Below are positions 1-17,254 of a stretch of 21,234 bases of DNA, piece by piece. The position numbers were made by a program, and so were the translations under genes. Source of the stretch: a virus (lineage: Duplodnaviria > Heunggongvirae > Uroviricota > Caudoviricetes); the IMG/VR virus record IMGVR_UViG_2698536401_000006. One strand, 5' to 3'. Every line of letters begins with the position of its first letter. Positions within the stretch are counted from its first letter, which is position 1. Under the pieces are notes generated by a model. That model did no database searches. It saw only the letters and a list, made by a program, of their open reading frames with translations, and had not been told where the DNA came from.

Positions 1-11
1 AGGGGGCCAGT

Positions 12-32
12 CTACTTTTTGTTGACTTCCAT
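12..32 (-). pseudogene. Terminase small subunit Nu1 N-terminal remnant (MEVNKK then in-frame TAG)
   Basis: ATG GAA GTC AAC AAA AAG matches the lambda nu1 start, but codon 7 is TAG (lambda has CAG) and the downstream sequence diverges. Only 11 nt are visible before the window edge. Confidence 0.45.
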
Positions 33-260
33 TGTTCATTCCACGGACAAAAACAGAGAAAGGAAACGACAGAGGCCAAAAAGCTCGCTTTCAGCACCTG
101 TCGTTTCCTTTCTTTTCAGGGGGTATTTTAAATAAAAACATTAAGTTACGACGAAGAAGAACGGAAATGCCTTAAACCGGAAAATTTTCATAAATAGCGA
201 AAACCCGCGAGGTCGCCGCCCCGTAACCTGTCGGATCGCCGGAAAGGACCCGAAAAATGA
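33..260 (-). other. Lambda-type cos region: cosN 12-nt cohesive-end sequence GGGCGGCGACCT at 210-221 (minus orientation), cosB side toward 33, cosQ side 222-260
   Basis: The reverse complement of 1-260 is nearly identical to the remembered phage lambda right-end/left-end junction (...CGACAGGTTACG | GGGCGGCGACCTCGCGGGTTTTCGCTATTTATGAAAATTTTCCGGTTTAAGG...GTGGAATGAACAATGGAAGTCAAC). Confidence 0.8.
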
Positions 261-420
261 TAATAATTATCATCTACATATCACAACGTGCATCTACGCC
301 ATCAAACCACGTCAAATAATCAATTATGACGCAGGTATCGTATTAATTGATCTGCATCAACTTAACGTAAAAACAACTTCAGACAATACAAATCAGCGAC
401 ACTGAATACGGGGCAACCTC

Positions 421-654
421 ATGTCAACTAAGAACAGAACCCGCAGAACAACAACCCGCAACATCCGCTTTCCTAACCAAATGATTGAACAAATTAACAT
501 CGCTCTTGAGCAAAAAGGGTCTGGGAATTTCTCAGCCTGGGTCATTGAAGCCTGCCGCCGGAGACTGTGCTCAGAAAAAAGAGTTTCTTCTGAAGCAAAC
601 AAAGAAAAGAGTGACATTACTGAATTGCTCAGAAAACAGGTCAGACCAGATTGA
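421..654 (+). CDS. Small ribbon-helix-helix (CopG/Arc-like) DNA-binding protein, YnfO/YlcI-like
   Basis: 77 aa ORF. The segment IRFPNQMIEQINIALEQKG..NFSAWVIEACRRRL has the beta-strand/helix/helix pattern of RHH proteins. Weak RBS; start uncertain (alternative Met at 481). Confidence 0.5.
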   Translation: MSTKNRTRRTTTRNIRFPNQMIEQINIALEQKGSGNFSAWVIEACRRRLCSEKRVSSEANKEKSDITELLRKQVRPD

Positions 655-696
655 AGAAATTTAGATAATCGTGCAGACTACGCCCCCTCATATCAC

Positions 697-1122
697 ATGG
701 AAGGTTTATCTATGGATCAGGTAGTCATCTTTAAACAAATATTTGATAAAGTTCGAAACGATTTAAACTATCAATGGTTTTATTCTGAGCTAAAACGTCA
801 CAATGTCTCACATTACATTTACTATTTAGCCACAGAGAATGTTCATATTGTATTAAAAAATGATAATACAGTGTTATTAAAGGGCCTAAAAAACATTGTG
901 TCTGTCAAATTTTCAAAGGATAGGCATCTTATAGAAACGACCTCTAATAAGCTGAAATCCAGAGAGATCACATTTCAGGAATACAGAAGAAACCTTGCTA
1001 AAGCAGGAGTTTTTCGGTGGGTTACAAATATCCACGAACAAAAAAGATATTACTATACCTTTGATAATTCATTACTATTTACTGAAAGCATCCAGAAAAC
1101 TACACAGATCTTACCACGCTAA
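697..1122 (+). CDS. ydfO: YdfO-like protein (DUF1398 family), prophage accessory gene
   Basis: 141 aa ORF, placed between cos and gnsB as ydfO is in K-12 Qin as I recall it. Opposite strand to the late operon. Start may be the internal Met at 712. Confidence 0.55.
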
Positions 1123-1273
1123 ACCATAACGTCCGGCTTCTCTCACTCCTGAGCCGGACTGCATTGGTTTAATAAAAACCATCAACAATTGTGATTTAGA
1201 TATTCGGAACCATTCAAATATAACAAAACCCCGTAAAAACGAGGTTTATGGATAAATTTTATTATTGAATACA

Positions 1274-1447
1274 TCAGATTAAATTAATCTTGACATCATA
1301 GCTTTCAAGACCCGTCATTTTTTCCCGTGCGGTAAACTGAATACTGGTAACTTCTTTCCCGGTCTTTTTCTTAAGTTCAATAATTTTTTTTGTTATATAT
1401 TCAGAAATATCTGCTTCTGCTTTTGTTTTTAAGTTTTCAATATTCAT
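1274..1447 (-). CDS. gnsB: GnsB-like small protein (Gns family)
   Basis: 57 aa ORF found by manual translation (absent from the ORF track): MNIENLKTKAEADISEYITKKIIELKKKTGKEVTSIQFTAREKMTGLESYDVKINLI, resembling remembered GnsA/GnsB. SD AAGAGGAA upstream; TGA stop at 1274-1276. Confidence 0.75.
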   Translation of the reverse strand: MNIENLKTKAEADISEYITKKIIELKKKTGKEVTSIQFTAREKMTGLESYDVKINLI

Positions 1448-1618
1448 CATTTCCTCTTTTAGTCTGTTATGACTTTCCAGTTACACAGTAAGTCGATTAT
1501 ATGGTGCAAACGTGTAAAAGATAAGATGAAACATCGCAATAATCAACATACGATAGTCTAAATTTTACACAAACAGACAAAGAGAATTTTCCTGAATTAT
1601 CAATGCAATAGCATCAAA

Positions 1619-1849
1619 TCAACTCAAGAGCCTTATTGCTGCTTCCAGAATTTCTTCTGAAGTAACATGTCGATCCGCGGCTACATAAATGACTTTATGA
1701 TCTCCGGTCAGAGATGGAAACCCTGCGGCCATTACAGTAAGGTGTGTTTTTTCGCCATTTGGATATTCACGCATGATGGTGTTAACTCCAGTCATCGCTG
1801 GCACTACCACTGCTGGTTCAGAGTTAAAAAAAACTATGATTTTTTTCAT
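1619..1849 (-). CDS. Hypothetical small protein, YnfN-like by position
   Basis: ORF 1619-1891; the likely start is the internal ATG at 1849 (MKKIIVFF...). Sits between gnsB and cspI as ynfN does in K-12 Qin. No recognisable domain. Confidence 0.5.
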   Translation of the reverse strand: MKKIIVFFNSEPAVVVPAMTGVNTIMREYPNGEKTHLTVMAAGFPSLTGDHKVIYVAADRHVTSEEILEAAIRLLS

Positions 1850-2120
1850 GATGTTACCGTAGTATGTGAGTATCCATCGAATAGACACCAAGCAAAAAAG
1901 CTCCCGAAGGAGCCTTCATTTTCACTTTTTTAAATCCAACGACAGACGGCTGGCATTTAAGTATTGTGAAATATTATCAAATGTAATCATCATTGATTTA
2001 CAAAAGATACATTTTGCCCCGAAAGGATTCATGTCAGAAACATCAAAAGATGATGTTCTATACTGGGAACCATGACAACACGGGCATCTAAAGTGAATAT
2101 GGTTTGTAATATTGTCTACC

Positions 2121-2333
2121 TCAAAGCGCCACTACATGAACAGCGGCAGGACCTTTAGGTCCGTTCTCAATACCAAATTCAACTTCCTGATTCTCAGTTA
2201 ATGTTTTGAAATCGTTGCTCTGAATTGCTGAGAAATGGACAAACACATCTTTGCTGCCATCTTTCGGCGTGATGAAACCAAAACCTTTTTCAGGGTTAAA
2301 CCATTTCACTAAACCAGTCATTTTGTTAGACAT
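2121..2333 (-). CDS. cspI: Cold shock protein CspI (CspA family)
   Basis: 70 aa with the signature [37 protein letters not shown] (RNP1/RNP2 motifs KGFGFI and VFVHF). Confidence 0.9.
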
Positions 2334-2695
2334 AATTATTACCTTTTGAAGAAATTAGCCCTTGGGCAGAATGGTCCGAAAAAAAATATCAGAGAGAAAA
2401 ACCAACAAGGAAATCTCAAGAGGTACAAATAATAAAATTATAACAATGACTGCTTCAGATAAATTTGTAACAAACCAGAACACCATTAACGCATGATTAA
2501 CCACCCATAGCAAGGATTACTTTTGTAAAGAAAAACACAGCAATGAAAGAATAGCTTTATTTATTAATAAAACGTGTCATTCTGATTAAGACCTTTTATC
2601 TTACCCTTAAGATTTCAGGAATTTTGGCTCATGGAAGAGTCCTTTTTATTTAAATTTTACATTCCGCGATGTAAATGTTCCGATTTAATATTACC

Positions 2696-3719
<1,024 letters not shown>

Positions 3720-3723
<4 letters not shown>

Positions 3724-4031
3724 AGATATTTATGATGAGGACGCTCGTGCTTATTGGCAGGATTTTCAATCTTAAAGGAGTACTGATGCTGCAGATAAGA
3801 CTCAACTTTTTCTGACAATTTTTCTGCTACTTCCAGGAAGACTTGCCGGACGCTCCTTCTGGCTGCTGCCTCATAAAACTCCAGCGCAGCTCCTTCAACA
3901 CGGTCCATGGCGACATCCAGGTCAAAAATTTCACCGTCAAAGCGTTCTTTGTCCTGTAAGGCTACAGTTACCGTAACTTTATTCTCAAAATTACGGACTC
4001 CTTTCACAACCAGTTCATAGTCTTGAGTCAT
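3720..4031 (-). CDS. ydfR: YdfR-like protein encoded between holin and endolysin
   Basis: 103 aa ORF translationally coupled (ATGA overlap) to the endolysin. Same position and length as K-12 ydfR as I recall it. Confidence 0.6.
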
Positions 4032-4035
4032 TGGA

Positions 4036-4251
4036 TTACTCTCCTCTCGCAGCCTTACGCCTGTCTTCTTTAATCTTGAAATAAAGATTTGTCAGATACG
4101 TCAGCAGGCCAAAAACCAGGCTACCCAGCACACCGATTGCAGCCCACTGTGACGGAGTTACTTTATCGAGTAACTGCAATGCCCAGAAACCAGCATTACC
4201 CGCCGATGTGCCATAGGCAACACCTGTTGTTAACTTATCCATTGATTTCAT
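4036..4251 (-). CDS. essQ: Holin (EssQ/EssD type), dual-start motif MKSM
   Basis: 71 aa from the ATG at 4251 ([14 protein letters not shown]...) with TM segments. SD GGTGAGGA upstream. Met1/Met4 dual start as in holin/antiholin pairs. The ORF track extends to 4326, but that upstream stretch lacks an RBS. Confidence 0.8.
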
Positions 4252-4470
4252 ATCCTCACCCCGATGTACACGGATGGTGCAATATGTTTGAAAAGATCGG
4301 AGTCTACGGGGTAGTTTTGACAGCACACGTTGTTCTCAACGGCGCTAAAAAAACATACACATTAAAAATGTGGGTAATTATTTTGAAAGAAAGTCATATA
4401 TAAAATAATAATACGAGAAATGTTTTCATATTTAGTGTACTGTATACGGCCATTTATACAGGAAAAGCCT

Positions 4471-4641
4471 ATGTCAGAACGTAAAAACTCAAAATCACGC
4501 CGTAATTATCTCGTTAAATGTTCCTGCCCAAACTGCACCCAAGAGTCAGAACACAGTTTTTCAAGAGTACAAAAAGGTGCCCTTTTGATCTGCCCTCATT
4601 GCAACAAAGTATTCCAGACAAATCTTAAAGCTGTAGCCTGA
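4471..4641 (+). CDS. Small zinc-ribbon protein (CxxC...CxxC), YnfU-like
   Basis: 56 aa from the ATG at 4471 (MSERKNSKSRRNYLVKCSCPNCTQESEHSFSRVQKGALLICPHCNKVF...). Two CxxC pairs; AGGAAAAG upstream. Followed by the hairpin at 4701-4726. Confidence 0.45.
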   Translation: MSERKNSKSRRNYLVKCSCPNCTQESEHSFSRVQKGALLICPHCNKVFQTNLKAVA

Positions 4642-4700
4642 TTGATTTTATTAGTAACAAGTATTTTTTATATTTTAATAATATATTTAAAGCAGATAAT

Positions 4701-4726
4701 AAAAAACCCGCCTGAGCGGGTTTGAG
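4701..4726 (-). terminator. Rho-independent terminator (hairpin CCCGC-ctga-GCGGG), strongest on the minus strand downstream of cspB
   Basis: The minus strand reads CCCGCTCAGGCGGG followed by TTTTTTATT. The plus strand has a poly-A before and a short T tract after, so it may act bidirectionally. Confidence 0.7.
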
Positions 4727-5004
4727 ATTGTGGTGCTTTTTGTGGGAGTCATCCACTTACGCACTTTGTTTTGCCATGCCAGCAGTTAGCTTCTGCTGTA
4801 AAACTATTCATGCAGCAAACCTGCACTTCACCACAATGGTTAGCATACTTTTCCTGATTAAGATTTTGCCAAATATGCTAGCCATTGTTTCATGTATTGG
4901 ACCTCCTTACTTTTTATTAAAGAGATCCAATATTCACTACTCTGTCCGTATCTCTACTCAGGCATCAGCCTTCTTCGTTATCGTATACAGACGAGCGATG
5001 AATT

Positions 5005-5220
5005 TTAATCAGTAATGATGACATTTGCTGCTGCAGGACCTTTAGCACCACTCTCTATAGAGAAGGTAACCTTTTGACCTTCAAATAAGGTTCGATAATT
5101 ATCATTCTGAATCGCAGAAAAATGCACAAACACATCTTTACTACCATCAACAGGAGAAATAAAGCCGAAACCTTTATCAGCGTTAAACCATTTTACTAAA
5201 CCAGTCATTTTATTTGACAT
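5005..5220 (-). CDS. cspB: Cold shock protein CspB
   Basis: 71 aa: [67 protein letters not shown]..., CspA-family signature. Confidence 0.9.
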
Positions 5221-5520
5221 TCTACATTCCTTAACTTGAGCCTTTCGGCATAAATGGTTTGCATAACAGAAACGACTTCGTACTTAATTGGAGAGACTCA
5301 AAGAAGGAATAAGTGAATAACACCTGAAATGAGAACTGCTTTAGTAAACTACTTCGTATATCGTCTGTTCTTCAAACCGACGCAATCATTAACGCATAGT
5401 TGAACATATGAAGCAATGTTTATTTTAGACATCCAGCCATCTTCAACCCCATCAAAAAACTATAGCTTTCTTCAGGAACGTGTGTATAGTGCGCCAAGTT
5501 ATCAGTATTAAGGAATTTTT

Positions 5521-5733
5521 TTGTCCCGTAAAATGACAGGAATTGTCAAAACCTTTGACGGCAAAAGCGGCAAGGGTCTTATCACCCCATCCGATGGTCG
5601 TATCGATGTCCAGCTTCATGTTTCAGCGCTCAATCTCCGCGATGCAGAAGAAATTACCACCGGATTACGCGTGGAATTTTGCCGGATAAATGGTCTGCGT
5701 GGCCCTTCAGCTGCCAATGTTTACCTTTCATGA
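5521..5733 (+). CDS. cspF: Cold shock protein homolog CspF/CspH type
   Basis: 70 aa: [26 protein letters not shown]...[21 protein letters not shown]. The track start at 5521 is a TTG codon; an in-frame ATG lies at 5533. Confidence 0.8.
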
Positions 5734-5787
5734 GCTATATTAAAGCTTTAATTTCAGGCCCCATCGGATCACACATGGAGAGTTTTT

Positions 5788-5877
5788 ATGAATAACCCCG
5801 TCTGTCTTGATGACTGGTTGATTGGCTTTAAAAGCTTATGCTGTACTTTGGCCGTAATAGCTCTGCTAATAATATAA
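5788..5877 (+). CDS. Possible 29 aa hydrophobic small peptide
   Basis: Manual translation gives [29 protein letters not shown], with GGAGAG 6 nt upstream of the ATG. Below the ORF-track size cutoff; speculative. Confidence 0.3.
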
Positions 5878-6025
5878 TAAGCAGACTCATTGTGTTTAGG
5901 GACATTGTACTGGAAGAAAACATTTTAAACATCAGGCAAATAACCAAGTCACCAGCTAAATAATAAGTTAACAGACATGAGTCCCGGGATGAGATTCAAC
6001 ATTACCATTGCCCCATTTAAAGCAC

Positions 6026-6059
6026 AAAACCCGCTCATCAGCGGGTTTTCTACTTTTTC
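6026..6059. terminator. Bidirectional hairpin terminator (CCCGCT-catc-AGCGGG), candidate tR' for the late promoter
   Basis: A GC-rich stem flanked by T-runs on both strands (plus TTTTCTACTTTTTC, minus TTTTGTGCTTT), lying about 40-60 nt downstream of the pR'-like promoter on the minus strand. Confidence 0.65.
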
Positions 6060-6094
6060 TTAACGTCGGGTATACAAAGCCCATCGTTGAAAAA

Positions 6095-6123
6095 ATTTTA
6101 TCCATATTTTTTGAAAAATGCAA
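6095..6123 (-). promoter_or_regulatory. pR'-like sigma-70 late promoter just downstream of Q (TTGCAT-N17-TAAAAT)
   Basis: The minus strand reads TTGCATTTTTCAAAAAATATGGATAAAAT: -35 at 6123-6118, a 17-nt spacer, and -10 at 6100-6095. Position relative to the Q gene is as in lambdoid phages. Confidence 0.6.
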
Positions 6124-6154
6124 ACATCATGTCGCCATCTTCAGCAAAAATCAT

Positions 6155-6907
6155 TTATCTCGTCACCTTCCTCAATTGCGCTTCCGCGTATGCTTCTTCC
6201 TGCCAGCACTTTGTTACCAGTTTACCAATGACGTCCGCATACCCCTTATACCACTGATAATCGGTCAGGTCTGGTACCAGCTTCTGGACATGACGTCGTG
6301 CCAGCGTGGTCGGTAAACGACTAAACCGGTTTCCATTACAACGCCCACAAATCTTATATACCGGTACGCCATGAAACCGGGTTCTTTTTTCATCCAGAAC
6401 AATCCCTTTACCCTTACACCCTCTGCACGCTGTGCTGGCTTCGCCCTTACCATGGCAATGCTGACATAGTTCCTTCACCCATTCTTCCTTGATTACAGAT
6501 TCCCCGCGTCTGTAGTGTTTCACCACTTCGCGCAATACATTATAAAATCCCGTACCTGAACAATGCTCACAGCGAGCCTTACTTGCCGCAGACCTGGAGT
6601 AATCAGCAAAGGCAAAACTCACGAGGTAAGGAATAATCTGTAACCGGATTTCTTCACTCAATTTGTTCAATGTCGGGTTATCCAGTGCCATCGCGTAATT
6701 TAGCAGGCCTTCAATCGCAAACTGAGGGTCCTGAACACCAACTTTTGCCAGAAATAAGGCCAACCCAAGTGGTGCTTTCGACTGCACCATCCCCTGCGCT
6801 GCCATTACATCCGTAATTGTTAAACAACCGGTGCCTGTCGCTGGAGCGTCATCGCTCAATTTTGGAGATTTTGGGGAGTAATATTTTGGTAAGGCTTCAA
6901 GGTTCAT
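6155..6907 (-). CDS. quuQ: Late-gene antiterminator Q homolog
   Basis: 250 aa from the ATG at 6907 (MNLEALPKYYSPKSPKLSDDAPATG...), with Cys-rich zinc-binding motifs (CEHCSGTG, CQHCHGKG, CRGCKGKG, CGRCNG). The ORF track begins 30 nt upstream at 6937. Confidence 0.85.
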   Translation of the reverse strand: MNLEALPKYYSPKSPKLSDDAPATGTGCLTITDVMAAQGMVQSKAPLGLALFLAKVGVQDPQFAIEGLLNYAMALDNPTLNKLSEEIRLQIIPYLVSFAFADYSRSAASKARCEHCSGTGFYNVLREVVKHYRRGESVIKEEWVKELCQHCHGKGEASTACRGCKGKGIVLDEKRTRFHGVPVYKICGRCNGNRFSRLPTTLARRHVQKLVPDLTDYQWYKGYADVIGKLVTKCWQEEAYAEAQLRKVTR

Positions 6908-6920
6908 GCTCGTTCTCCAC

Positions 6921-8009
6921 TTACGCCAGTACGCCAATTGTCAGCGCGCGATCGATAAAACGAAATATCAGCTCCAGTTGGGAGCCATACTTATCTTCAA
7001 ATGCCACTGTATCCGTATGCAGCTCGTTGTGATGCTTTCTGCACAAAGGCAACACAAAGAGATCATGTGCTTTTGTTCCCATTCCGCCCTGCCCGTGACC
7101 AATCAGATGATGCGGATCGTCGGCTGGCATACCGCAGCAAGCACACGGCTGTGTCTTAACCCAACGTGTGTATTTCTCCTTAACCCAGCGGCGACGTTTA
7201 GGCAGCTTCATGAAAGATTCCGGAGACTCTGGATCAACGGTGATGCTTACCACCGTCTTTTCCTGTGGTGATTTTTGTTGCTGGTGGGCGTAAGGCAACG
7301 GTGCAAGATTTTTTGTGCGTTGTTTCAATATGCTGGTGGCGGTCTGCTCTCCCGGTACGATGTCGCTTTCGCGGTACACCGAGCAGATTTTTTCCGCTGG
7401 TAATCCCAGCGAACGACGCGATACAGCCTCAGGTAGTGCATCCACCACCTGATTGCAGACCGCCCACCAGGATAATTCAGCCAAAGATAATTCCCGCTCC
7501 TGCGTACCGCTTATTGCGTGACGGATGACGTCAATCACCCATGCTGTCAGATTTTGTTGAGCAAGCAGCTCCAGTGATTCCGATGTCTGGTCACGCAGTT
7601 GGTTGTCGCAGTGCCAGCACAACACCATTGCGCCGGTACCATAACGGTGAATGACTGTTTCAGTGTGATGGTAATCGCCATTAGGCCACTGGCAGGATGT
7701 AACATGACGTAATAGCCAGTCGGACAATGCGCCAACGCCGCCAGCAGCACGAATCACCCGTTCGTTACTAAAAAACGGCAGCAATGTTTTGTCTTCCGCC
7801 AGCGGCTGGCGAACGGCAGGAACGACTCCGGATGGCAGATTACGCATGCTTTTTGGTTCCGGTTCCACCAGCACTCGAGGATTATGAAATATCTGTATGG
7901 ATTCACGGCCCGGCTTAAGGACCACCAGCCCAAGCTCAGGCACCAGAACAGGTCTAAGTAATACCCGCACGTTACCTCCAGATCCGTTGCTGGAAAGTGC
8001 GGGACGCAC
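6921..8009 (-). CDS. ydfU: YdfU-like protein (DUF968 family) with a C-terminal HNH-like Cys/His motif
   Basis: 362 aa ORF directly upstream of Q. C-terminal CACCGMPADDPHHLIGHG...CRKHHNELH. Start uncertain: the ORF overlaps the upstream rem-like ORF by 38 nt, and an internal Met (MRNLPSG) exists. Confidence 0.65.
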   Translation of the reverse strand: MRPALSSNGSGGNVRVLLRPVLVPELGLVVLKPGRESIQIFHNPRVLVEPEPKSMRNLPSGVVPAVRQPLAEDKTLLPFFSNERVIRAAGGVGALSDWLLRHVTSCQWPNGDYHHTETVIHRYGTGAMVLCWHCDNQLRDQTSESLELLAQQNLTAWVIDVIRHAISGTQERELSLAELSWWAVCNQVVDALPEAVSRRSLGLPAEKICSVYRESDIVPGEQTATSILKQRTKNLAPLPYAHQQQKSPQEKTVVSITVDPESPESFMKLPKRRRWVKEKYTRWVKTQPCACCGMPADDPHHLIGHGQGGMGTKAHDLFVLPLCRKHHNELHTDTVAFEDKYGSQLELIFRFIDRALTIGVLA

Positions 8010-8250
8010 GTGGTGGGCGTTCGGAATAAGGCAGCCTGACAGAGATTATCCAGTGCCGATAGTCGAGACTGAGAGCTTTCTTAACCTCGAACCCGCGCCT
8101 GCGGTAAGAATGAATCAGCCATTCGGCCTGTTCTGCAGTGCATGGAGGGTGCTGGAACCATTCAGACTTGAATGCGTGAGAATACCGCCCGTGCGTGCAG
8201 GCAAGAACGGGCGAATTATCAGAATTGTAATATTTTGCGTTGCGTGCCAT
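7972..8250 (-). CDS. rem: Rem-like small protein (assigned by position)
   Basis: 92 aa ORF between the ydfU-like gene and hokD, where rem lies in K-12 Qin. Named from position only. Confidence 0.5.
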   Translation of the reverse strand: MARNAKYYNSDNSPVLACTHGRYSHAFKSEWFQHPPCTAEQAEWLIHSYRRRGFEVKKALSLDYRHWIISVRLPYSERPPRASRTFQQRIWR

Positions 8251-8316
8251 CGGTTTTCTCCGGTGGCACGGTGTTACTCAGCGGGAGTTCAGCCCCGCGC
8301 AAGATTGTAGATGAGT

Positions 8317-8568
8317 TTATTCTCCTGAAAAAGCAGAAAAGCCAGCTTTTATTCCGATCTCTTTCAATGCCTGTAATGAAGTGACAAACTCACCTTCGCG
8401 CAAGATAAATCCGTCCGTGACCCGAGCATCCACAAAATTAATTAACGCAGCCCCATTCTTTCGCAAACACATAATGCGGTAATGACTAACAAGATTTCCA
8501 TTTTCAACGCACACAGCATAGAGGCCATCTTCACAAAAAATTTTACGCAGTTCTTCGATGTTCATCAT
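8317..8568 (-). CDS. Hypothetical 83 aa protein, no recognisable family
   Basis: ORF with SD GGAAGGA 6 nt upstream of ATGATG, downstream of the relBE-hokD terminator. I do not recognise it. Confidence 0.5.
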   Translation of the reverse strand: MMNIEELRKIFCEDGLYAVCVENGNLVSHYRIMCLRKNGAALINFVDARVTDGFILREGEFVTSLQALKEIGIKAGFSAFSGE

Positions 8569-8685
8569 CAGAATCCTTCCGGATAATTAGCTCTCCCCTT
8601 TAAGGGACCATCCCTCTTATCCCTGCGCGCTACTTAAGTATTTTTGATTCTATTCCGGCACCGTCCAGAACTTCAAACGCGTTGA

Positions 8686-8714
8686 AAATAAAAACAAAAA
8701 CCCGCCGAAGCGGG
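8686..8714 (-). terminator. Rho-independent terminator of the relBE-hokD operon
   Basis: The minus strand reads CCCGCTTCGGCGGG followed by TTTTTGTTTTTATTT, about 70 nt downstream of the hokD stop. Confidence 0.75.
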
Positions 8715-8784
8715 TTAAGTGCGGGTGCGTTGAGGATGCCTGCCACATCAGAGGTGGCGAGGGATTTCTCCCCCGCCGGGTCTC

Positions 8785-8940
8785 TTACTCCTCAGGTTCG
8801 TAAGCTGTGAAGACAGCGACCTCCGTCTGGCCGGTTCGGATTCGTACCTCGCAGAGGTCTTTCCTCGTTACCAGTGCCGTCACTATGACGGTTAAACAGA
8901 TGACGATCAGGGCGATTAACATCGCCTTTTGCTGCTTCAT
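8785..8940 (-). CDS. hokD: Hok-family membrane toxin HokD (RelF)
   Basis: Manual translation gives MKQQKAMLIALIVICLTVIVTALVTRKDLCEVRIRTGQTEVAVFTAYEPEE (51 aa), matching remembered HokD. SD AGGAGAAG upstream. Absent from the ORF track because of its size. Confidence 0.85.
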   Translation of the reverse strand: MKQQKAMLIALIVICLTVIVTALVTRKDLCEVRIRTGQTEVAVFTAYEPEE

Positions 8941-9011
8941 AGCCTGCTTCTCCTGTCAACGCAAAGCAGAAGTGTCACCTTCGGTGCGAAACAGAGATGT
9001 CATGCTTTGGT

Positions 9012-9299
9012 TCAGAGAATGCGTTTGACCGCCTCGCTATATACTTCCGAGCGTTCTCTTTTCCCAACAGAAATCACGAAAACGACAACTTTCTCGTCTA
9101 TAACCTGGTATACAAGGCGATAGCCTGAAGACCGGAGCTTAATCTTGTAACAATCAGGCATACCACGGAGCTTGTTTGCTTCAATCCGGGGTGACTCAAG
9201 TACTTCAACCAGCTTCTTTTTCAACTGTTCACGTACCGTCGAGCCCAGCTTTCGCCATTCCTTTAGTGCCCGCTCGTCAAAATCCAGAAAATACGCCAT
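9012..9299 (-). CDS. relE: RelE mRNA interferase toxin
   Basis: 95 aa: MAYFLDFDERALKEWRKLGSTVREQLKKKLVEVLESPRIEANKLRGMPDCYKIKLRSSGYRLVYQVIDEKVVVFVISVGKRERSEVY..., matching remembered RelE. Start overlaps the relB stop (TGATG). Confidence 0.9.
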   Translation of the reverse strand: MAYFLDFDERALKEWRKLGSTVREQLKKKLVEVLESPRIEANKLRGMPDCYKIKLRSSGYRLVYQVIDEKVVVFVISVGKRERSEVYSEAVKRIL

Positions 9300-9538
9300 C
9301 AGAGTTCATCCAGCGTCACACGTACTGGCTTAGGATTACGAAGCCGTTCTTTCACTATCTCCACAAGTTCAGCATCTTCATCACTCAGGAGTGTCTGTTT
9401 GAACGGCAAGCGTTCATTGTCAGCGATATACTCGAGCATGAGACGAAGCGCTTCAGAAGGAGTTACACCCATTTTTTCAAGCGCGGCGTAAGAACGCGCT
9501 TTAAGTTCATCGTCAATACGCAGGTTAATGCTACCCAT
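9299..9538 (-). CDS. relB: RelB antitoxin
   Basis: 79 aa: MGSINLRIDDELKARSYAALEKMGVTPSEALRLMLEYIADNERLPFKQTLLSDEDAELVEIVKERLRNPKPVRVTLDEL. SD GAGG upstream. Confidence 0.9.
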   Translation of the reverse strand: MGSINLRIDDELKARSYAALEKMGVTPSEALRLMLEYIADNERLPFKQTLLSDEDAELVEIVKERLRNPKPVRVTLDEL

Positions 9539-9544
9539 GTCTTA

Positions 9545-9590
9545 CACCTCTTGTAATTACAAATGTCATTACAAGTATCGCACTACAACA
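9545..9590 (-). promoter_or_regulatory. relBE promoter/operator (relO) with TTGTAAT/ATTACAA hexad repeats
   Basis: TTGTAATTACAAATGTCATTACAAG sits immediately upstream of the relB start, with palindromic TTGTAATTACAA. Confidence 0.7.
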
Positions 9591-9868
9591 TGCTTAGGGC
9601 AAGTCACGAAGGAAGTCAGAAAGTAGTCGTAAGAACGGTGATCACTGTCCGCTTTGTGCCAGGAGCAGCCATTGCTAAGTCCATCCTGTATTGTGCAGGT
9701 CAGCTCGTTTTTAAAGAGTCCGGCCATCATCTTACTGGTACAGACACCATATACTTTGTGACGGTCAGGCTACATATGCACAACTCAACTTATTCATCTA
9801 TTTTTTGCTTTAGCATGTCAGTGTTGCTTTCTCGTCGGCGGGTGAGCGGTGACCTGACCTGTCGATAA
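9563..9868 (+). CDS. Doubtful ORF, YdfV-like by position and length
   Basis: 101 aa ORF in the relB-flxA gap with no RBS and no recognisable features. It overlaps the relO promoter region. Listed only because K-12 annotates a 101 aa ydfV here. Confidence 0.2.
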   Translation: MSLQVSHYNMLRASHEGSQKVVVRTVITVRFVPGAAIAKSILYCAGQLVFKESGHHLTGTDTIYFVTVRLHMHNSTYSSIFCFSMSVLLSRRRVSGDLTCR

Positions 9869-10020
9869 AGGAACGTAACACGTTTTATGCAACACCCGCA
9901 TGCGGCAGAAAATTATTGCCGAACGTTTACCCCTGTCAACAAGCTTTACTTTCTGAGGCGCGCCAGCCCGCGAGGAAAACAATCTGAACATCAAACAATT
10001 AATGACACAAGAAATACGAT

Positions 10021-10047
10021 TAAAGATTTTTTTGTGCATGCCGATAG
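10021..10047 (+). promoter_or_regulatory. Sigma-28 (FliA) class 3 flagellar promoter upstream of flxA
   Basis: TAAAGATT-N11-GCCGATAG compared with the consensus TAAAGTTT-N11-GCCGATAA; about 24 nt upstream of the flxA start. Confidence 0.75.
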
Positions 10048-10070
10048 TGCTTTTTTAAAAGGAGAAATCT

Positions 10071-10403
10071 ATGTCTGTCACAATTCAGGGAAATACCTCA
10101 ACCGTTATTTCAAACAACTCCGCCCCGGAAGGAACATCAGAAATAGCCAAAATCACAAGACAAATTCAGGTGCTGACTGAAAAGCTTGGGAAAATCTCAT
10201 CGGAAGAGGGGATGACGACACAGCAGAAAAAAGAAATGGCTGCATTGGTACAGAAGCAAATTGAAAGCCTCTGGGCTCAACTGGAGCAGTTGTTAAGGCA
10301 GCAGGCAGAGAAAAAGAATGAAGACGCGACAGTTCAGCCTGATAAAAAAGAAGAGAAAAAAGACGATACAAATACCGCTGGCACCATTGATATTTACGTC
10401 TAA
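10071..10403 (+). CDS. flxA: FlxA (FliA-regulated protein)
   Basis: 110 aa: MSVTIQGNTSTVISNNSAPEGTSEIAKITRQIQVLTEKLGKISSEEGMTTQQKKEMAALVQKQIESLWAQL... RBS AAGGAGA. Confidence 0.85.
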   Translation: MSVTIQGNTSTVISNNSAPEGTSEIAKITRQIQVLTEKLGKISSEEGMTTQQKKEMAALVQKQIESLWAQLEQLLRQQAEKKNEDATVQPDKKEEKKDDTNTAGTIDIYV

Positions 10404-10417
10404 GTGACAGCCGTATT

Positions 10418-10441
10418 GTGGCCCTCATCGGGCCACTTTTC
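10418..10441 (+). terminator. Rho-independent terminator of flxA
   Basis: Hairpin GTGGCCC-tcatc-GGGCCAC followed by TTTTCG. Confidence 0.6.
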
Positions 10442-10839
10442 GCCATCAGCCTTTTCTTTAAAGACATATTATCTTTGTATCATTTCTGATAGTTAACATT
10501 ACAAGATATAAGTAATGGACGCACTCCCAATTAGTCTATTTAAATCGCCACGAGTTTAACTGACAACCCATGATCAATTATGAATTGCAACTATTTCTGT
10601 AGTCACTTTTGTGGGGACAGTCCACAAAACTGCCAACTTCCGCTTCTTGCTCTTAGCGGACATTAGCATAGGCTATTTACCATAACGCCTCATTACGCGC
10701 ACCGCCCAGACTGACTCAGCGCGTTTCTGGCATATCCCCGGTAAAACAAGTAACAAACCACCCGAAAATGAACACCAGAAACGCGACTTAAGAATCTACC
10801 CTATGAATGGATATGCACTCAACCGAATCGATCTTGGTT

Positions 10840-12153
10840 TCAATCTTTTTTATCGGGATCAGGCTTCTTTTTAGGTAACTTCGGGGGCTTAACTTGCTGA
10901 TGACTTTGCGTTCGGCGCGTAAGCCAGGGATGGTCAGCTTTAGGTTTAACATAGTATTTTGAGCGTAAATCAATACGGGCATTATCCACTCGTTCATGGA
11001 CACTCTTTTCATCATCCAGTGGTATAGGCTCCGGGCCATCAACATACTTTTCCCAGCCCAGCGCTTTCCCGTCATACAGAACGTTAATTTCACCGTCAAA
11101 GTTCTCGCATACAGTAACAACCGAATGCCTAAGTCGATATCCCCGGCCCTCACTGCGTACCTGAAACGCACTGCTTTTGTACTGGAAAGTGAGATTTTTA
11201 GACAGAACGCGCTTCGCCTGTAGGCTGAAGATATAACCCAGTTCCTCTTCAGAATGGTGCACATCAAGATGAGCATTATCAGTAGTACGAGGCGACGTAG
11301 CGAACCGGTTGTTATAGGCTTCAATAAAGGTCGGCAACCATGCATTTGCTGTTTCAATATCACTGATATTCTGAAGCCGCATTTCTTTGACCAGCCTGTC
11401 CTGTAGTGTCTGATTGGCGCGCTCTACCCGCCCTTTTGCCTGCGGGCTGTTGGCATGGATTGGCTCGATGCCCAGTGTCTTTATCGCACGAGTGAACTGG
11501 GTCAGCTCACCTTCCCGCTCTGGGTTATTTACCCTGAATATACTGTGTCTATCAGAGTAGAGAGCGAGCGGTACGCCATGATCATTAAGGTAACCCCGGA
11601 GGGTTTCCATGTAAGCCCGGGTTGTTTCAGCAGGCACAAAACGCAACGCCATCAACGCACTGGTGGCATCATCAATGAAAACGATCAGTGTACATCTGGG
11701 GCCTCGATTTTCAAACCAGTCATGAGGTGAGCCATCAATCTGGATCAGTTCACCGTAAGATGGTCGTCGCATGCGGCGTTGATATATACGGGCAATTTTA
11801 CGACGGCGTTCACGCCATAACCCCTCTTCTATCATCCACTTTCTGAGAGTTTCAACGGATAAAGATAAACCGTGTATCTCGCGCAATTTTTCGCACGCAA
11901 ACGTAGGTCCAAAATCAGCGTAACGGCCTTTGAGGAGTGAAATTACTGTTGCTCTGAATTCAGTAGAAAAGGAATTATTAGGACGCTTTCCACGTCGGTG
12001 GGAAACCAGACCAGAAGGCCCTTCATTTCTATACCGTTGCACCAGACGTTTAACCTGCCGAATAGAAATGCCAATGCGTGCCGCAGCTTGTTCCTGAATA
12101 ATCTGAAGTCGGTGGAGTTCCTTATGACTCATCGTAACAGTCTCTTTGATCAT
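10840..12153 (-). CDS. DDE transposase with N-terminal HTH and rve (integrase-core) domain, IS481-like in architecture
   Basis: 437 aa with an N-terminal HTH region (ISIRQVKRLVQRY) and D/D/E-type core segments (IQIDGSPHDWF, LIVFIDDATS, LYSDRHSIF, ERANQTLQD). IS family is not established and IS ends were not identified. Confidence 0.75.
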   Translation of the reverse strand: MIKETVTMSHKELHRLQIIQEQAAARIGISIRQVKRLVQRYRNEGPSGLVSHRRGKRPNNSFSTEFRATVISLLKGRYADFGPTFACEKLREIHGLSLSVETLRKWMIEEGLWRERRRKIARIYQRRMRRPSYGELIQIDGSPHDWFENRGPRCTLIVFIDDATSALMALRFVPAETTRAYMETLRGYLNDHGVPLALYSDRHSIFRVNNPEREGELTQFTRAIKTLGIEPIHANSPQAKGRVERANQTLQDRLVKEMRLQNISDIETANAWLPTFIEAYNNRFATSPRTTDNAHLDVHHSEEELGYIFSLQAKRVLSKNLTFQYKSSAFQVRSEGRGYRLRHSVVTVCENFDGEINVLYDGKALGWEKYVDGPEPIPLDDEKSVHERVDNARIDLRSKYYVKPKADHPWLTRRTQSHQQVKPPKLPKKKPDPDKKD

Positions 12154-12370
12154 GAAAAATCCCCCAGAGAATTGTCTGGGGACATTTTAGAATGGTTCAA
12201 AGGGGACATTACAGCTTGGTGTTAACAATAGCCTGCTTCTCCGTGCCTTTCGGCACGTAAGAGGCTAACCTACATGTGTCTAGCATGAAATTGGCCTCAG
12301 ATTAATGTTAAGCGTCTTGCAGGACGCGTAATGTTAACTGGGGCTTTTCTCTATCTGCCGTTGGTGTCCA

Positions 12371-12402
12371 TGCCCGAGGCAGATAGCCTCAAGCACCCGC
12401 CG
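12371..12402 (+). repeat. Left copy of a 32 bp imperfect direct repeat flanking the low-GC cassette
   Basis: TGCCCGAGGCAGATAGCCTCAAGCACCCGCCG; 27 of 32 nt match the copy at 14390-14421, with an identical 14-nt core CCTCAAGCACCCGC. Confidence 0.6.
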
Positions 12403-12636
12403 TGATTCTACAAAAACATTACCCACCTTTCCAGCAATTCACAACAACTCCATGCAAATAGTAAGTAGAATAATAAGTTATTAGTATTAGCAATTTACTT
12501 AGTTTCTAATTTGTGCCAATGATTTTCATTTTTGCATGAAAAATACCTTAACATTTTATATTTACTTACTATTTGTAAGCCCCATCAGTTCTTTCTGATG
12601 GCGGCTGGTATTTCAGTTCCAGATATAGTATATGCT

Positions 12637-13665
12637 TTACGCCTTAATAGGGTTAATCACATTTCCGCTATCCGTACCATAGTATTTTTTTGTAGTCATG
12701 CCTTGTTTATAATAATCATTTAACAGTTTGAGAAAGTTTCTTCCTTGCCTCTCATCTTCTATGACTAATTTACCATGCTCATTGGTCTTAAACTCTTCGT
12801 TCTGAAACATTTTTAGCACATCATTCATAGCTTGAACATCATTCTTTTCCAGAACCGTATGGTTACCTTTCTCAGCGATATGAGTGAGAATTTTTCTCAG
12901 TGATGGCTTATGAAGAATAGCTTGTTCAATAACATCTAAACCTTCAATAAGATCAAGTTCTTTAATTGTATTTAATGTTTTTTGTGCAGCTTCTGTAAAC
13001 TCAACCTCCAAGCCTACAATAGCCTCAAAACTTTTCTTATGAAATACATAAAATTGATCTTTTATATAAATACAATCGATTTTGTCATCAAAATTGACTG
13101 CGCTGCCATCAAATGATCTTAACTCTTTATCTGTTTTATCAAACAAAGCGAATACGCGCTGAGTCATATTTTGTGGTTCATTTGTTGTGACTTTCCCCCT
13201 GCTGATTTTTCGGAAAGAATAAGTGACGTCAGCCCCCTTTTGGACTTTAATACAATAGGCCCACAAATCATTCTGAACCTCAGCCAGAGAGGTAAGTACA
13301 ACTGGTTTATCATTCTTTATATCGTTATTAATAACTTTTGAAAACGATATCGCGTTATTCATAGCATAGGCATAAATCTTATTATCAATATCATCATCAA
13401 TAACAGTATACTTTTTCATCACAATATCATCTTTCGAAGCATGAGAAATAATCTGGTTTGATAAAGTATACTTAAAAAATTTAGCAATATCTGGAGCGAT
13501 TGGAGCTTTAATGATTTTAAAATCGAATTTATCAACAACTCTTGCGGTTCTACTCATACCCGCTTTAAGATGTCTAGTAATGAAATACAACGATATTTTC
13601 GCCGCATCATCATCCTTAAGTTGCTCAGCATACTCTAATAATTCTTCAAGCTTTAACATTTTCAT
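12637..13665 (-). CDS. Hypothetical 342 aa soluble protein, second gene of the low-GC cassette (candidate defence effector/sensor)
   Basis: AT-rich ORF with Lys/Asn/Ile-biased codon usage unlike the surrounding prophage. Translationally coupled (ATGA overlap) to the upstream membrane protein gene. No motif I can name. Confidence 0.75.
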   Translation of the reverse strand: MKMLKLEELLEYAEQLKDDDAAKISLYFITRHLKAGMSRTARVVDKFDFKIIKAPIAPDIAKFFKYTLSNQIISHASKDDIVMKKYTVIDDDIDNKIYAYAMNNAISFSKVINNDIKNDKPVVLTSLAEVQNDLWAYCIKVQKGADVTYSFRKISRGKVTTNEPQNMTQRVFALFDKTDKELRSFDGSAVNFDDKIDCIYIKDQFYVFHKKSFEAIVGLEVEFTEAAQKTLNTIKELDLIEGLDVIEQAILHKPSLRKILTHIAEKGNHTVLEKNDVQAMNDVLKMFQNEEFKTNEHGKLVIEDERQGRNFLKLLNDYYKQGMTTKKYYGTDSGNVINPIKA

Positions 13666-14276
13666 TCCTTATGGGATTCAGCATAAAAAAGTTTTGGGCC
13701 CACGTCCTCAACATCAAGAAGATCATCTTCCTCCAAATACTTTGATTTAGTCAAAACCATACCAGTGCGTTTTTTGTCGCTTTCTAAATCCAAATATGTA
13801 ACTTGATATAAAGTATAATTAATACTTATTGTAGGATTTATAAGTATCATGCTTGAATTAATATATATTAAAGCCGTTACCGTTAACAATATTGCTATAG
13901 GTATAACATTAGTTAAAGTGGATAGATCCTGAAATACAAACGGAATTATATATGTAAAAAGATAGCTTATTGATTCATTGTTTTTATTTTCAATATCTAT
14001 AACTCTTACAGTTCTACCACTAGTGGCGCATCGACGTTTTATATTTTTTAAAAAAATTGTTAATCCTACAATACCAAATAATGATAATACACCAATGACA
14101 CTGACCGCGCCAAAGTATTTAAAGAAAATAGTTAATGATTCAACACTTATACCTTTCCAATTTAAATAGCTTCTATAAGTATACAATTGCACAAAACACA
14201 TGATAAAGAATAGGGGAAGGTATGACACTATAAATAGCGAAACTCTAGCACCTAAATGTAGTTTATTTACTCTCAT
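13662..14276 (-). CDS. 4-TM membrane protein, first gene of the low-GC cassette
   Basis: 204 aa with four hydrophobic segments (about 12-31, 48-74, 103-115, 123-146) and an acidic C-terminal tail. AT-rich. Its stop overlaps the start of the downstream gene. Confidence 0.7.
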   Translation of the reverse strand: MRVNKLHLGARVSLFIVSYLPLFFIMCFVQLYTYRSYLNWKGISVESLTIFFKYFGAVSVIGVLSLFGIVGLTIFLKNIKRRCATSGRTVRVIDIENKNNESISYLFTYIIPFVFQDLSTLTNVIPIAILLTVTALIYINSSMILINPTISINYTLYQVTYLDLESDKKRTGMVLTKSKYLEEDDLLDVEDVGPKLFYAESHKE

Positions 14277-14389
14277 AACTACCCCACAGCCTACACGTCT
14301 AGTATTTTATGTTATTTCGAATAATTATGCATCAGATTACCATCCTACAATTGTGCATAAAACGAGCATTTTGCTGATTTTTCTGCGGA

Positions 14390-14421
14390 TGCCTGAGACA
14401 GACAACCTCAAGCACCCGCAG
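14390..14421 (+). repeat. Right copy of the 32 bp imperfect direct repeat flanking the low-GC cassette
   Basis: TGCCTGAGACAGACAACCTCAAGCACCCGCAG; pairs with 12371-12402. Confidence 0.6.
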
Positions 14422-14484
14422 CAATTTTACTTAACTCCCGCTACCTCGCCAATATGAAATCAATAAGAAAGGTGCTCCATAAAA

Positions 14485-15171
14485 TCACTCCTTCTCTTCT
14501 TTATCGTAGTGGAGTTGACCAATTTTGATAAGAGGGCGTCCCTGAGATTTGCGGTGTAGATTGGTATCGCGCAGAGAATACACACAGCCACAATATTCCT
14601 GCTGATAGAATTTTTCGCGCTTGCTGATTTCAATCATGCGGGACGAGCCGCCCTGCTTGCGCCAGTTATAATCCCAGTACACCATGCCCGGATAATGCGC
14701 GACGGCTCGCCGCCCACAGTCGTTAACCTGCTGCATATTTTTCCAGCGTGAAATGCCCAGTGAACTGCTGATCACACTGAAACCATTTTCAGCAGCGTAC
14801 AGCGCTGTCCGCTCAAAACGCATGTCAAAACACATGGTACAACGGATCCCCCTCTCGGGCTCCCATTCCATTCCTTTGGCACGTTCAAACCAGTTGTCTG
14901 TGTCGTAATCAGCATCAATAAATGGCACGCCGTGTTGTTCAGCAAAGCGAATATTCTCATCCTTACGAATTAAATACTCTTTCTGAGGATGAATGTTCGG
15001 GTTGTAGAAAAAGATGGTATAGTCGATTCCCGAGGCCTGAAGCGCCTCCATCACTTCACCGGAACATGGAGCACAGCAAGAGTGCAGTAGTAGTTTGTTT
15101 GCCCCGTTTGGGAGCTCCAATTTAGGCCGTTTGAAATCAGCAATAGTCATAAATATTTTTATTGGGGTCAT
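14485..15171 (-). CDS. QueH-like protein (DUF208, epoxyqueuosine reductase family)
   Basis: 228 aa containing [14 protein letters not shown] near the N-terminus, the Cys motif I associate with QueH/DUF208, plus further conserved Cys (CTMC, CGC). Start could be the internal Met at 15150. Confidence 0.65.
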
Positions 15172-15347
15172 GAAAATAGCACAGAGTGTAGCATCAGGGC
15201 TATCGGGAATAGATGTCTAAATCTGGTAATATCTGCTTTTGACGCAAAGCAGACAACCACGCTAGCTCAATCCTGTGCCGTGAAAATGTCAATTCACATC
15301 TGAACTAATGCTCTTTAATCTAGTTACGTCTATAAATAACGAAAATT

Positions 15348-15746
15348 TCACTGATAAAATGCCAGTATGCGCTGCATAACTTCGCTCTTCCGGCACTCAC
15401 AGCAAATTATGTTTTGGTGCCTGTCATAACGACGTATTTCTCCGTCAGGTAATGACCAGATAAGGTCCGGATCAACCACAGATGTTTTCTTCACCTTTGC
15501 CCTCGAGAGTTTTTTGCGGGCGTTTTGCCAGTCCTTACGAGCCTGTTCAGACGGGAATAACCCGTAGCCAGAGTTATATACATCACCACTGGCAACCAGC
15601 TCTCTGGCGAGAACGCTCATCAGATATCTTGTCGCACCTGTCTTGGCTTCCAGTTGCCGTAACGTCTCGCGCCCACTCCGGCGTACTAGCTCAACAACCT
15701 GCCCCTTGATTTTTTCCCGCTCTTCTTGTGTAAAAACTTTTGCCAC
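15348..15746 (-). CDS. Hypothetical 132 aa early-region protein
   Basis: ORF immediately downstream of the O-like gene; no recognisable motifs (no Walker A). Function unknown. Confidence 0.5.
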   Translation of the reverse strand: MAKVFTQEEREKIKGQVVELVRRSGRETLRQLEAKTGATRYLMSVLARELVASGDVYNSGYGLFPSEQARKDWQNARKKLSRAKVKKTSVVDPDLIWSLPDGEIRRYDRHQNIICCECRKSEVMQRILAFYQ

Positions 15747-15786
15747 AAGTCCCCCTTAAAATTACCTCATGACCTGAAATCAAAAC

Positions 15787-16806
15787 TTATCCTCTGAAAC
15801 CAGGCGGAATTTCTGTATCCGGTTCAGAAATATGATTAACACAACGCTGTACAGGTGAACGCCCCAGGCGGATGACCAGTTCGTCCCATTTTTCGCGGAG
15901 CTTTGACGGGCTCATGATGTTTTTTACCCAGAATGGATCCCGCTGTACCCGACCAAACATTTCACAAATTTGTCTGTGGCTTCTGCCATCCAGCATCCGC
16001 ATTGTGCGCACATCATTGGCCCAGACAGTCCAGTTAGGCTCTTTTGGTCGCATGATCTCGCCATCATCACTGGCGGCCTGTTCGTAGAGACCCACGATCC
16101 GCCCCCATATCCACTGCGCACACGCCAGATCCTCCTGGCTACCCCACTGGCGTTTTTTCGCACTAAACACAACTGCGCCAGGGTGCCGGATTAAAAAATC
16201 CTGTTCAGCCGTCTGCGGGTCCGGTTGCGAAGCTTCCGGACGAAAAGTGTTTTTATTCTCTGTAGTAATCTCTGTTGTATTCTCTGTAGGATCATCGGGC
16301 CATTTTGACCCGATGACATTGGGTCGTTTTGAACCAATGGAGCGTTTCATTTTGACCTCTTCCATCGTGTCATTTTGACCTGATGGAGCGGCGCATTTTG
16401 AACCGATGGATTCGCTCAATTTGCCATCATCTAAAAGCTCGCTCCCATAGTTAATCGTGTAGAAATTGGTCATATCGCGCTTTGATTTATTGAGCTTTTC
16501 ACAACGCAAAAGCCCCAGCGTTTTCAGACTTGCAAACGCGCGCTTTAACGTTGACTCTGACCAGAATGGGAACTGTTCCAGCCATTGTTCCGTTGTGTTG
16601 TAAATCCAGCGAACACCATCACATTCCATGCCGGAATTGGTATCTCTCAACCAGTAATGCAACTGCTGCAACACAATGGCTTCATTTAAGCCAATCTTCA
16701 TCGCAAGCTGTGTGTTTATAACCAGTGGGCGTTCAGCAAAAAGAAGGCTCATAATTCCATCCAGCTTTTTGTTGGTATTGCTGTCGATACGCAAGTTTGA
16801 AAGCAA
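15787..16806 (-). CDS. Lambda O-like replication initiator with the origin embedded in its coding sequence
   Basis: 339 aa with an N-terminal winged-helix-like region. Five iterons in the middle of the gene give the peptide repeats SIGSK/VIGSK. Lies downstream of cro-like dicC. Start may be the internal Met at 16752. Confidence 0.7.
   Translation of the reverse strand: MLSNLRIDSNTNKKLDGIMSLLFAERPLVINTQLAMKIGLNEAIVLQQLHYWLRDTNSGMECDGVRWIYNTTEQWLEQFPFWSESTLKRAFASLKTLGLLRCEKLNKSKRDMTNFYTINYGSELLDDGKLSESIGSKCAAPSGQNDTMEEVKMKRSIGSKRPNVIGSKWPDDPTENTTEITTENKNTFRPEASQPDPQTAEQDFLIRHPGAVVFSAKKRQWGSQEDLACAQWIWGRIVGLYEQAASDDGEIMRPKEPNWTVWANDVRTMRMLDGRSHRQICEMFGRVQRDPFWVKNIMSPSKLREKWDELVIRLGRSPVQRCVNHISEPDTEIPPGFRG
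16295..16410. repeat. Replication origin iterons: five copies of about CATTTTGA(C/A)C(C/T)GATGG at 23-24 bp spacing
   Basis: Copies start near 16301, 16325, 16348, 16371 and 16394; the first is part of the palindrome TCATCGGG..CCCGATGA. An adjacent AT-rich tract with ACAGAGAATA repeats (16230-16290) lies on the downstream side, as in lambda ori. Confidence 0.75.
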
Positions 16807-17254
16807 TTGCTTTTTCTATAAGTTCGTCAGTTTCACGATCCACTACGGCAGGATCAGCAAAAAGCAGTCCGGACTCCACCACATCGCCATATTCTTTGTT
16901 TAACCCGGCGATCATGTACGTGATGCTTTTTCCGTCACTAATTTCACGATGCAACCTGAAATCATTAATCCGGATAGCCTCCATAATTGCAGGCACTAGC
17001 GCCGTGAACTTTTCACGCTTATCCCTGGTGTCGATAGCCTTCCAGCGTTCGAATATCTTCACTCGATTAACGCCAAGCGCTCGCTGATCAACCGCGCCAC
17101 CTTCATCTGTGACACGCTGAACATCGATGTTCGGGCGCTCTTTCAAAGCCCAGAATGCTTCAGTGATTAATATCGTCGCCTGCTCCTGTGTCATTCCTGG
17201 TCGACATATCCAGGCATCCAGAGCCTCACGAGCCTGTTCAGGAGTGATTTTCAT
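16733..17254 (-). CDS. Hypothetical 173 aa early protein adjacent to dicC (cII/YdaT position)
   Basis: ORF overlapping the dicC stop. Possible weak resemblance to YdaT-type proteins, but this is from uncertain memory only. Confidence 0.55.
   Translation of the reverse strand: MKITPEQAREALDAWICRPGMTQEQATILITEAFWALKERPNIDVQRVTDEGGAVDQRALGVNRVKIFERWKAIDTRDKREKFTALVPAIMEAIRINDFRLHREISDGKSITYMIAGLNKEYGDVVESGLLFADPAVVDRETDELIEKAIAFKLAYRQQYQQKAGWNYEPSFC

Follow-up and report, generated by a model that had tools for sequence, protein, structure and literature searches.

The question raised by this locus is why a lambda-type cos site should stand beside a nu1 gene, encoding the small terminase subunit (TerS), which reads only six codons (MEVNKK) before it meets a TAG stop. 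The window, by which is meant the whole 21,234 bp stretch of DNA that was analysed, represents a Qin-family lambdoid prophage, with positions 6-11024 showing 99.8% identity to K-12 Qin. The minus strand of its first 260 nucleotides carries the whole feature, namely cos followed by the nu1 start. In the initial annotation the stop and the divergent sequence beyond it were taken to mean that the packaging gene was inactivated or that the prophage was rearranged just past the left edge, possibly at the deletion boundary of its head and tail genes. The explanation preferred here, and considered very probable, is that nu1 of this Qin-like lambdoid prophage took up IS2 by simple insertion behind its nucleotide 18, with the target AAAAG duplicated and the left inverted repeat (IRL) of the element lying towards the gene start.

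Organisation of the cos region

The lambda reference (NC_001416) was aligned with its right end joined to its left end, and the reverse complement of window 15-260 was found to match lambda 48,464-48,502 plus 1-208 at 240 of 247 positions (97.2%). This bears out the near-identity to lambda over about 230 bp that had been noted initially, with every subsite present, and the lambda homology runs on to window position 420 (395/407, 97.1%). The features of the region are as follows, in their order along the minus strand.

251..245, minus strand: cosQ, the packaging-termination element, GGGTCCT; 7/7 identical to lambda 48,473-48,479, which we take to be the lambda cosQ; spacing to cosN as in lambda
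223..208, minus strand: cosN, 16 bp; 16/16 identical to lambda
221..210, minus strand: 12-nt cohesive end GGGCGGCGACCT; 12/12 identical to lambda
172..157, minus strand: cosB R3 (lambda bp 50-65), the TerS-binding site of critical importance; 15/16, the sole change being bp 54 G to A (window 168)
114..156, minus strand: I1 region between R3 and R2 (lambda 66-108), putative IHF site, placed by position only
98..113, plus strand: cosB R2 16-mer, inverted (lambda 109-124); exact match to lambda
57..72, minus strand: cosB R1, TerS-binding 16-mer CTGTCGTTTCCTTTCT (lambda 151-166); exact match to lambda
15..32, minus strand: start of nu1 (TerS), codons 1-6 MEVNKK; same as lambda nu1 nt 1-18, K-12 nohA and strain A1
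15..19, minus strand: AAAAG target site, left copy of the 5-bp duplication (nu1 nt 14-18), which recurs at the IS2 right end on contig LOOE01000024.1
1..14, minus strand: IS2 IRL, outer 14 nt, TAGACTGGCCCCCT; 14/14 identical to the insC-proximal end of K-12 IS2A

A complete and intact lambda-type cos thus occupies window 57-251 on the minus strand, and the insertion falls entirely downstream of it. The sequence of this cos holds a cohesive end within cosN, a cosQ and a complex cosB (R3-I1-R2-R1), with R2 facing the other way from R3 and R1, in keeping with what the cos family demands. By the published definitions, cosN extends the 12-bp cohesive end by 2 bp in each direction and one and the same 16-mer is present in R2 and R1 (PMC9026076), R3 spans lambda bp 50-65, where bp 55-63 make the contacts and bp 56, 58 and 59 are critical, R2 is inverted and cosQ is a conserved 7-bp element (PMC9026076; PMC4669245). 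The single change in R3, at bp 54, falls outside the contact segment, and the three critical base pairs are kept. This change is also present in K-12 Qin, as are both substitutions in the I1 region (41/43 against lambda; 73 A to G and 102 T to C) and the loss of one nucleotide between R2 and R1 (lambda bp 138).

Just upstream of cos, four substitutions are found within window 292-297, where the minus strand reads GTAGAT and lambda, K-12 Qin and A1 read CTCCAC. The same GTAGAT is carried by a further relative, L021. This looks like a small patch of recombination or mutation rather than scattered drift.

The break in nu1 and the two ends of IS2

On the minus strand the nu1 ATG lies at 32..30, the codons for MEVNKK occupy 32..15 and the TAG lies at 14..12, so that the gene start was correctly read in the initial annotation. 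The TAG, however, is formed by the opening three bases of the IS2 IRL. The divergence described beyond it is real, but it extends over merely 14 bases before the window ends, and these are an exact IS2 terminus. This terminal 14-mer occurs once in the window and, with one mismatch permitted, in none of 100 shuffles. This end carries the unusual TA terminal dinucleotide that typifies the IS2 IRL, and the right repeat (IRR) ends in CA-3' (PMC3299598). The IRL, which is the orfA side of the element, faces the nu1 start, and orfA (insC) would run in the direction of nu1. The minus strand of the window finishes with AACAAAAAG / TAGACTGGCCCCCT, or in a longer form with GTCAACAAAAAG / TAGACTGGCCCCCT, the slash marking the junction. 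Relatives read AAAAAG / CAGCTGGCTGAC at this point, where the window has AAAAAG / TAGACTGGCCCCCT as its last bases, and uninterrupted nu1 across the insertion point is AAAAAGCAGCTGG.

A sequencing error at the TAG, for which a check had been proposed, or a simple nonsense mutation in a continuous nu1 would also produce a stop here, as a lone C to T change would convert CAG (Gln7) to TAG, and the alignment of nu1 by BLAST does reach window base 6. This alignment is stretched past the junction because TAGACTGGC and CAGCTGGC are alike by chance (TAG-ACTGGC against CAG-CTGGC). The bases from the TAG to the end of the window match the IS2 left end at all 14 positions and fit nu1 only with a gap and mismatches, and a reciprocal IS2 end with a target duplication is present on LOOE01000024.1. 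The stop is accordingly attributed to IS2 rather than to an error or a point mutation, either of which now has a negligible probability.

The window is the whole of draft contig LOOE01000046.1 (GCA_001575375.1, 21,234 bp) and therefore its end is a repeat-induced assembly break, 14 nt into IS2; the partner contig likewise stops 17 nt into the element, which is the usual behaviour of an assembler at a multi-copy repeat. It had been suggested that the sequence left of the window be inspected; the record itself ends there, but the partner contig supplies the remainder of nu1 behind IS2. Insertion of IS2 makes a 5-bp target duplication, and it was predicted beforehand that a simple insertion with such a duplication would leave the chimeric sequence YRGKSKK / QLADIF on a partner contig. 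This was then found. The 182-aa chimera, YRGKSKKQLADIF..., has a single occurrence among approximately 15 billion proteins, KXP98660.1, which is annotated as 'partial' and whose gene sits at the extreme end of LOOE01000024.1 (61,044 bp) in the same assembly. In the same collection, neither the edge products beginning SKK, KSKK, GKSKK and RGKSKK nor the 189-aa GTG fusion discussed below were found. Sequences beginning KQLADIF and KKQLADIF were present, but these are native nu1 sequence and were set aside as uninformative.

Contig LOOE01000024.1 starts with the final 17 nt of IS2, ATATAGGGGCAAATCCA (nt 1-17), followed by AAAAG (nt 18-22) and CAGCTGGCTGAC; after the AAAAG it reads CAGCTGGCTGACATTTTCGG..., which is nu1 from codon 7. 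AAAAG therefore abuts both ends of IS2, while it is present as a single copy in the uninterrupted relatives, and the two flanks together restore nu1 exactly as it stands in the uninterrupted L021. Hallmarks of IS2 are thus present here: an IRL with its TA, an IRR ending in CA-3' and a 5-bp direct duplication. The element itself is known by 14 plus 17 terminal nucleotides, and a full-length IS2 of 1,331 bp is assumed, whose body would encode orfA and orfB (insC and insD) with a programmed frameshift.

It should be noted that the junction lies where a contig of a short-read draft terminates, and it was encountered in no other genome collection searched. A chimeric 600-nt query (window cos/nu1 plus K-12 IS2) detected the IS2-nu1 junction in 0 of 5,426 complete E. 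coli genomes, and the exact 42-nt junction gave no match in GTDB representative genomes or in JGI metagenome contigs. Among ten YnfO contexts retrieved, none contained the junction sequence and nine had a full-length Nu1 gene called. A literature search on the assembly accession GCA_001575375.1 found no mention of it. The position at a contig end and the absence from the complete E. coli genomes, the GTDB representatives and the JGI contigs would suit an assembly chimera with no biological counterpart. A chimera would not, however, give reciprocal junctions on two independent contig ends with a precise 5-bp duplication, and such an origin is hardly credible.

Beyond the junction, LOOE01000024.1 carries nu1 codons 7-181 and then A, W, B, C, D, E, FI, FII, Z, U, V, G, T and H in an unbroken block, with gene sizes equal to those of lambda (A 641, W 68, B 533, C 439, D 110 and E 341 aa). 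Its identity to lambda across nu1-A-W is 98.1%, and its nt 16-6847 (6,832 nt) are 100% identical to L021 (Logan ERR3653668), in which nu1 is intact. An intact gene of the Phage_Nu1/TerS-lambda family (PF07471) is not found in the prophage, as the coding sequence is split with all of its domains still encoded; codons 7-181 behind IS2 do give a PF07471 match and are the same in sequence as Nu1 of L021.

This block also bears on the idea of a rearranged prophage, in which recombination between this IS2 and another copy would have caused an inversion, a separation of the cos side from the nu1-head-tail side or a deletion of the structural genes next to cos. The window terminates within IS2, so the adjacency of the two junctions is not directly visible in the draft assembly, and recombination between IS2 copies would keep both junction sequences as they are. 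There is a precedent for such decay within the Qin family, as K-12 Qin has an IS2 fragment in ydfE and has lost its head and tail genes. An alignment to K-12 nohA had been recommended; a deletion boundary of the kind envisaged does exist in K-12, but at nohA codon ~176 and not at codon 7. In the present assembly, by contrast, the structural genes are intact and abut the IS2 right end, which excludes the deletion version outright and removes the ground for placing a head-tail deletion boundary or a rearrangement just past the left edge. The matching AAAAG and the exact restoration of nu1 are the signature of a primary insertion, to which a secondary rearrangement would add an extra, unsupported event; inversion or separation of the two sides is thus thought improbable.

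Relatives and other contents of the prophage

The prophage of strain A1 is 99.87% identical to the window over its entire length, with 28 differing positions, and its nohA is intact. Two further relatives, L018 and L021, also have an intact nu1 followed by head genes, as does A1, and the cos region of L021 is the same as that of the window. As all three relatives are uninterrupted, we infer that the insertion of IS2 is recent and strain-specific.

IS elements have also struck elsewhere in this prophage family. The ydfE/exo gene of K-12 Qin is cut short by an IS2 fragment (IS2E) exactly at the point where homology to the window stops (window 20217, corresponding to NC_000913 1,650,843). The exonuclease gene continues uninterrupted in the window past 20217, and IS2E represents an independent IS2 strike. 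In E. coli Stbl4 (NZ_CP081009.1, nt 6670-6800) the nohA frame breaks after ...GCGAGTATCCGTAC and joins a partial IS3-family transposase annotation followed by unrelated genes, which is an independent disruption of the nu1 5' end in a Qin prophage.

The lysozyme allele of the window is missing from 12 reference loci. Two draft assemblies with the same rare allele (GCA_011926305.1 and GCA_012178585.1) break at positions equivalent to window ~401 and ~523, respectively; both points lie close to ynfO, a short way upstream of the lambda-like DNA next to cos. The breaks suggest that these two genomes have more than one copy of the cos region and may harbour several lambdoid prophages.

A block at window 11025-16974 is missing from K-12 Qin. 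Within the window, the Kiwa anti-phage pair is encoded on the minus strand by KwaB (12637-13665) and KwaA (204 aa, 13662-14276), with matches to Pfam PF28043 and PF16162, and is adjoined by an ISNCY-type transposase ORF of 437 aa (10840-12153, minus strand). The kwaA gene is intact in the window; in A1 a single A is missing at window 14050 and kwaA is not annotated. Between the transposase and kwaB lies a match to the Rfam sok antitoxin RNA (12227-12398, minus strand; 104 bits against a gathering score of 59), which is distant from the annotated hokD (~8785-8940) and may mark a second hok/sok-type module. The DicF sRNA (18755-18806, plus strand) and two cspA-type thermoregulator leaders (2094-2479 and 4989-5381, both minus strand), located upstream of cspI and cspB, are as expected for a Qin-family prophage. 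At its right end (window 21234) the contig stops within the exonuclease gene, where no IS terminus is present, and A1 is collinear to the last base; this break may be due to a repeat common to another lambdoid prophage.

Predicted effect on packaging and comparison with known systems

The view that nu1 is inactivated holds in so far as the gene is disrupted at codon 7 by IS2, while the loss of TerS function itself is a prediction. The native nu1 ORF now ends after six codons at the TAG of the IRL, and residues 7-181 would be left without the start codon and ribosome-binding site, now some 1.3 kb away, so that no normal TerS would be expected. The N-terminal domain of TerS is a winged helix-turn-helix (HTH), with its recognition helix at residues 17-24 and its wing at 31-39, which binds the R sites (PMC9026076). 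TerS bound to the R sites anchors the large subunit (TerL) for accurate nicking of cosN, and in its absence the prophage would be expected neither to cut nor to package its own DNA. From the sequence, it is likely that TerS has been lost and that the result is a packaging-defective prophage with a usable cos. Passive prophages can be packaged by a helper terminase through their cos (PMC4669245). With its lambda-type R3 contacts kept, the present element should therefore still be open to packaging in trans when another lambdoid phage supplies a terminase of lambda specificity. An intact cos of this specificity has in effect been left in the chromosome, where co-resident or superinfecting lambdoid phages could use it.

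Late transcription in such phages is Q-antiterminated, and for this reason expression of A and the later genes probably survives IS2. The same read-through enters into the view that the insertion is not null. Read in the nu1 frame, the right end of IS2 is TAA GTG ATA ACA GAT GTC TGG AAA TAT AGG GGC AAA TCC A, then AAAAG, and the GTG, at IS2 nt 1295, is preceded at 4 nt by a GGG run that weakly resembles a Shine-Dalgarno sequence. A fusion starting from this GTG would be 189 aa long (MITDVWKYRGKSKK-Q7...G181), would restore two lysines before Gln7 and would keep the entire winged-HTH, oligomerisation and TerL-binding domains. Such a fusion, translated after Q-antiterminated read-through of IS2, might act as a working TerS and preserve packaging; alternatively, the prophage might survive as a passenger that has only its cos to offer and depends on other lambdoid phages for its mobilisation. 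Together these outcomes are given a low probability, and a functional MITDVWKYRGKSKK-Nu1 fusion is unlikely. A packaging-defective prophage without normal TerS is still preferred.

Two further candidates were considered and discarded. The idea that the IS2 right end forms a hybrid promoter directed outwards was rejected, as the flank AAAAGCAGCTGG, read by eye, has no plausible -10 hexamer 16-18 bp from the TGGAAA of the IRR. A Nu1 protein annotated as 'protein convertase' (P0015) was considered as a second TerS in the same genome, but it belongs to a sister assembly, GCA_001575285.1, and has no bearing on complementation here.

For annotation purposes, a single IS2 can serve to link LOOE01000046.1 with LOOE01000024.1. 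The prophage linked in this way is an almost complete Qin/lambda-like phage whose one identifiable lesion lies in TerS, unlike the cryptic remnant that is K-12 Qin. The main value of the result is one of correction: what looked like a stop at a contig edge is the end of a mobile element, and the genes that seemed to be missing lie on another contig. It is a further example of IS-mediated domestication of a prophage, a known kind of event in a known gene beside a known site, and no long-standing question hangs on the insertion of IS2 into nu1.

Compared with phage lambda, the order and orientation of cosQ, cosN, R3, the I1 region, R2, R1 and the nu1 start are the same. In lambda, however, nu1 is unbroken, whereas here IS2 follows nucleotide 18, R3 has its change at bp 54, bp 138 is deleted and the whole resides in the chromosome as a Qin-family prophage. 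K-12 Qin shares the gene order from nohA/cos through ynfO, ydfO, gnsB, ynfN, cspI, rzpQ and rrrQ onwards, and lacks an insert of approximately 6 kb that is present in the window (the ISNCY-type transposase, Kiwa and others). Its nohA (b1548) keeps the start and residues 1-~176 but is truncated at the 3' end, with the head-tail genes deleted and stfQ next, whereas in the present prophage IS2 strikes the 5' end of nu1 and the head-tail genes are retained. The IS2A copy in K-12 yaiX has the same termini as the present one, which matches it at 14/14 positions of the IRL and 17/17 of the IRR. IS2A is flanked on both sides by ATTAC and the present copy by AAAAG; the latter occupies a new target site, occupied in none of the 5,426 complete E. 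coli genomes, and, unlike IS2A, is known by its two ends alone. Finally, the helper-packaged passive prophages of the Feiss laboratory system and the Gram-negative PICIs resemble this prophage in having a functional-looking cos without a TerS of their own, which only a helper terminase could package (PMC4669245; PMC9026076). The analogy is one of mechanism only, as the present case represents an accidental IS strike and not an evolved form of hijacking.
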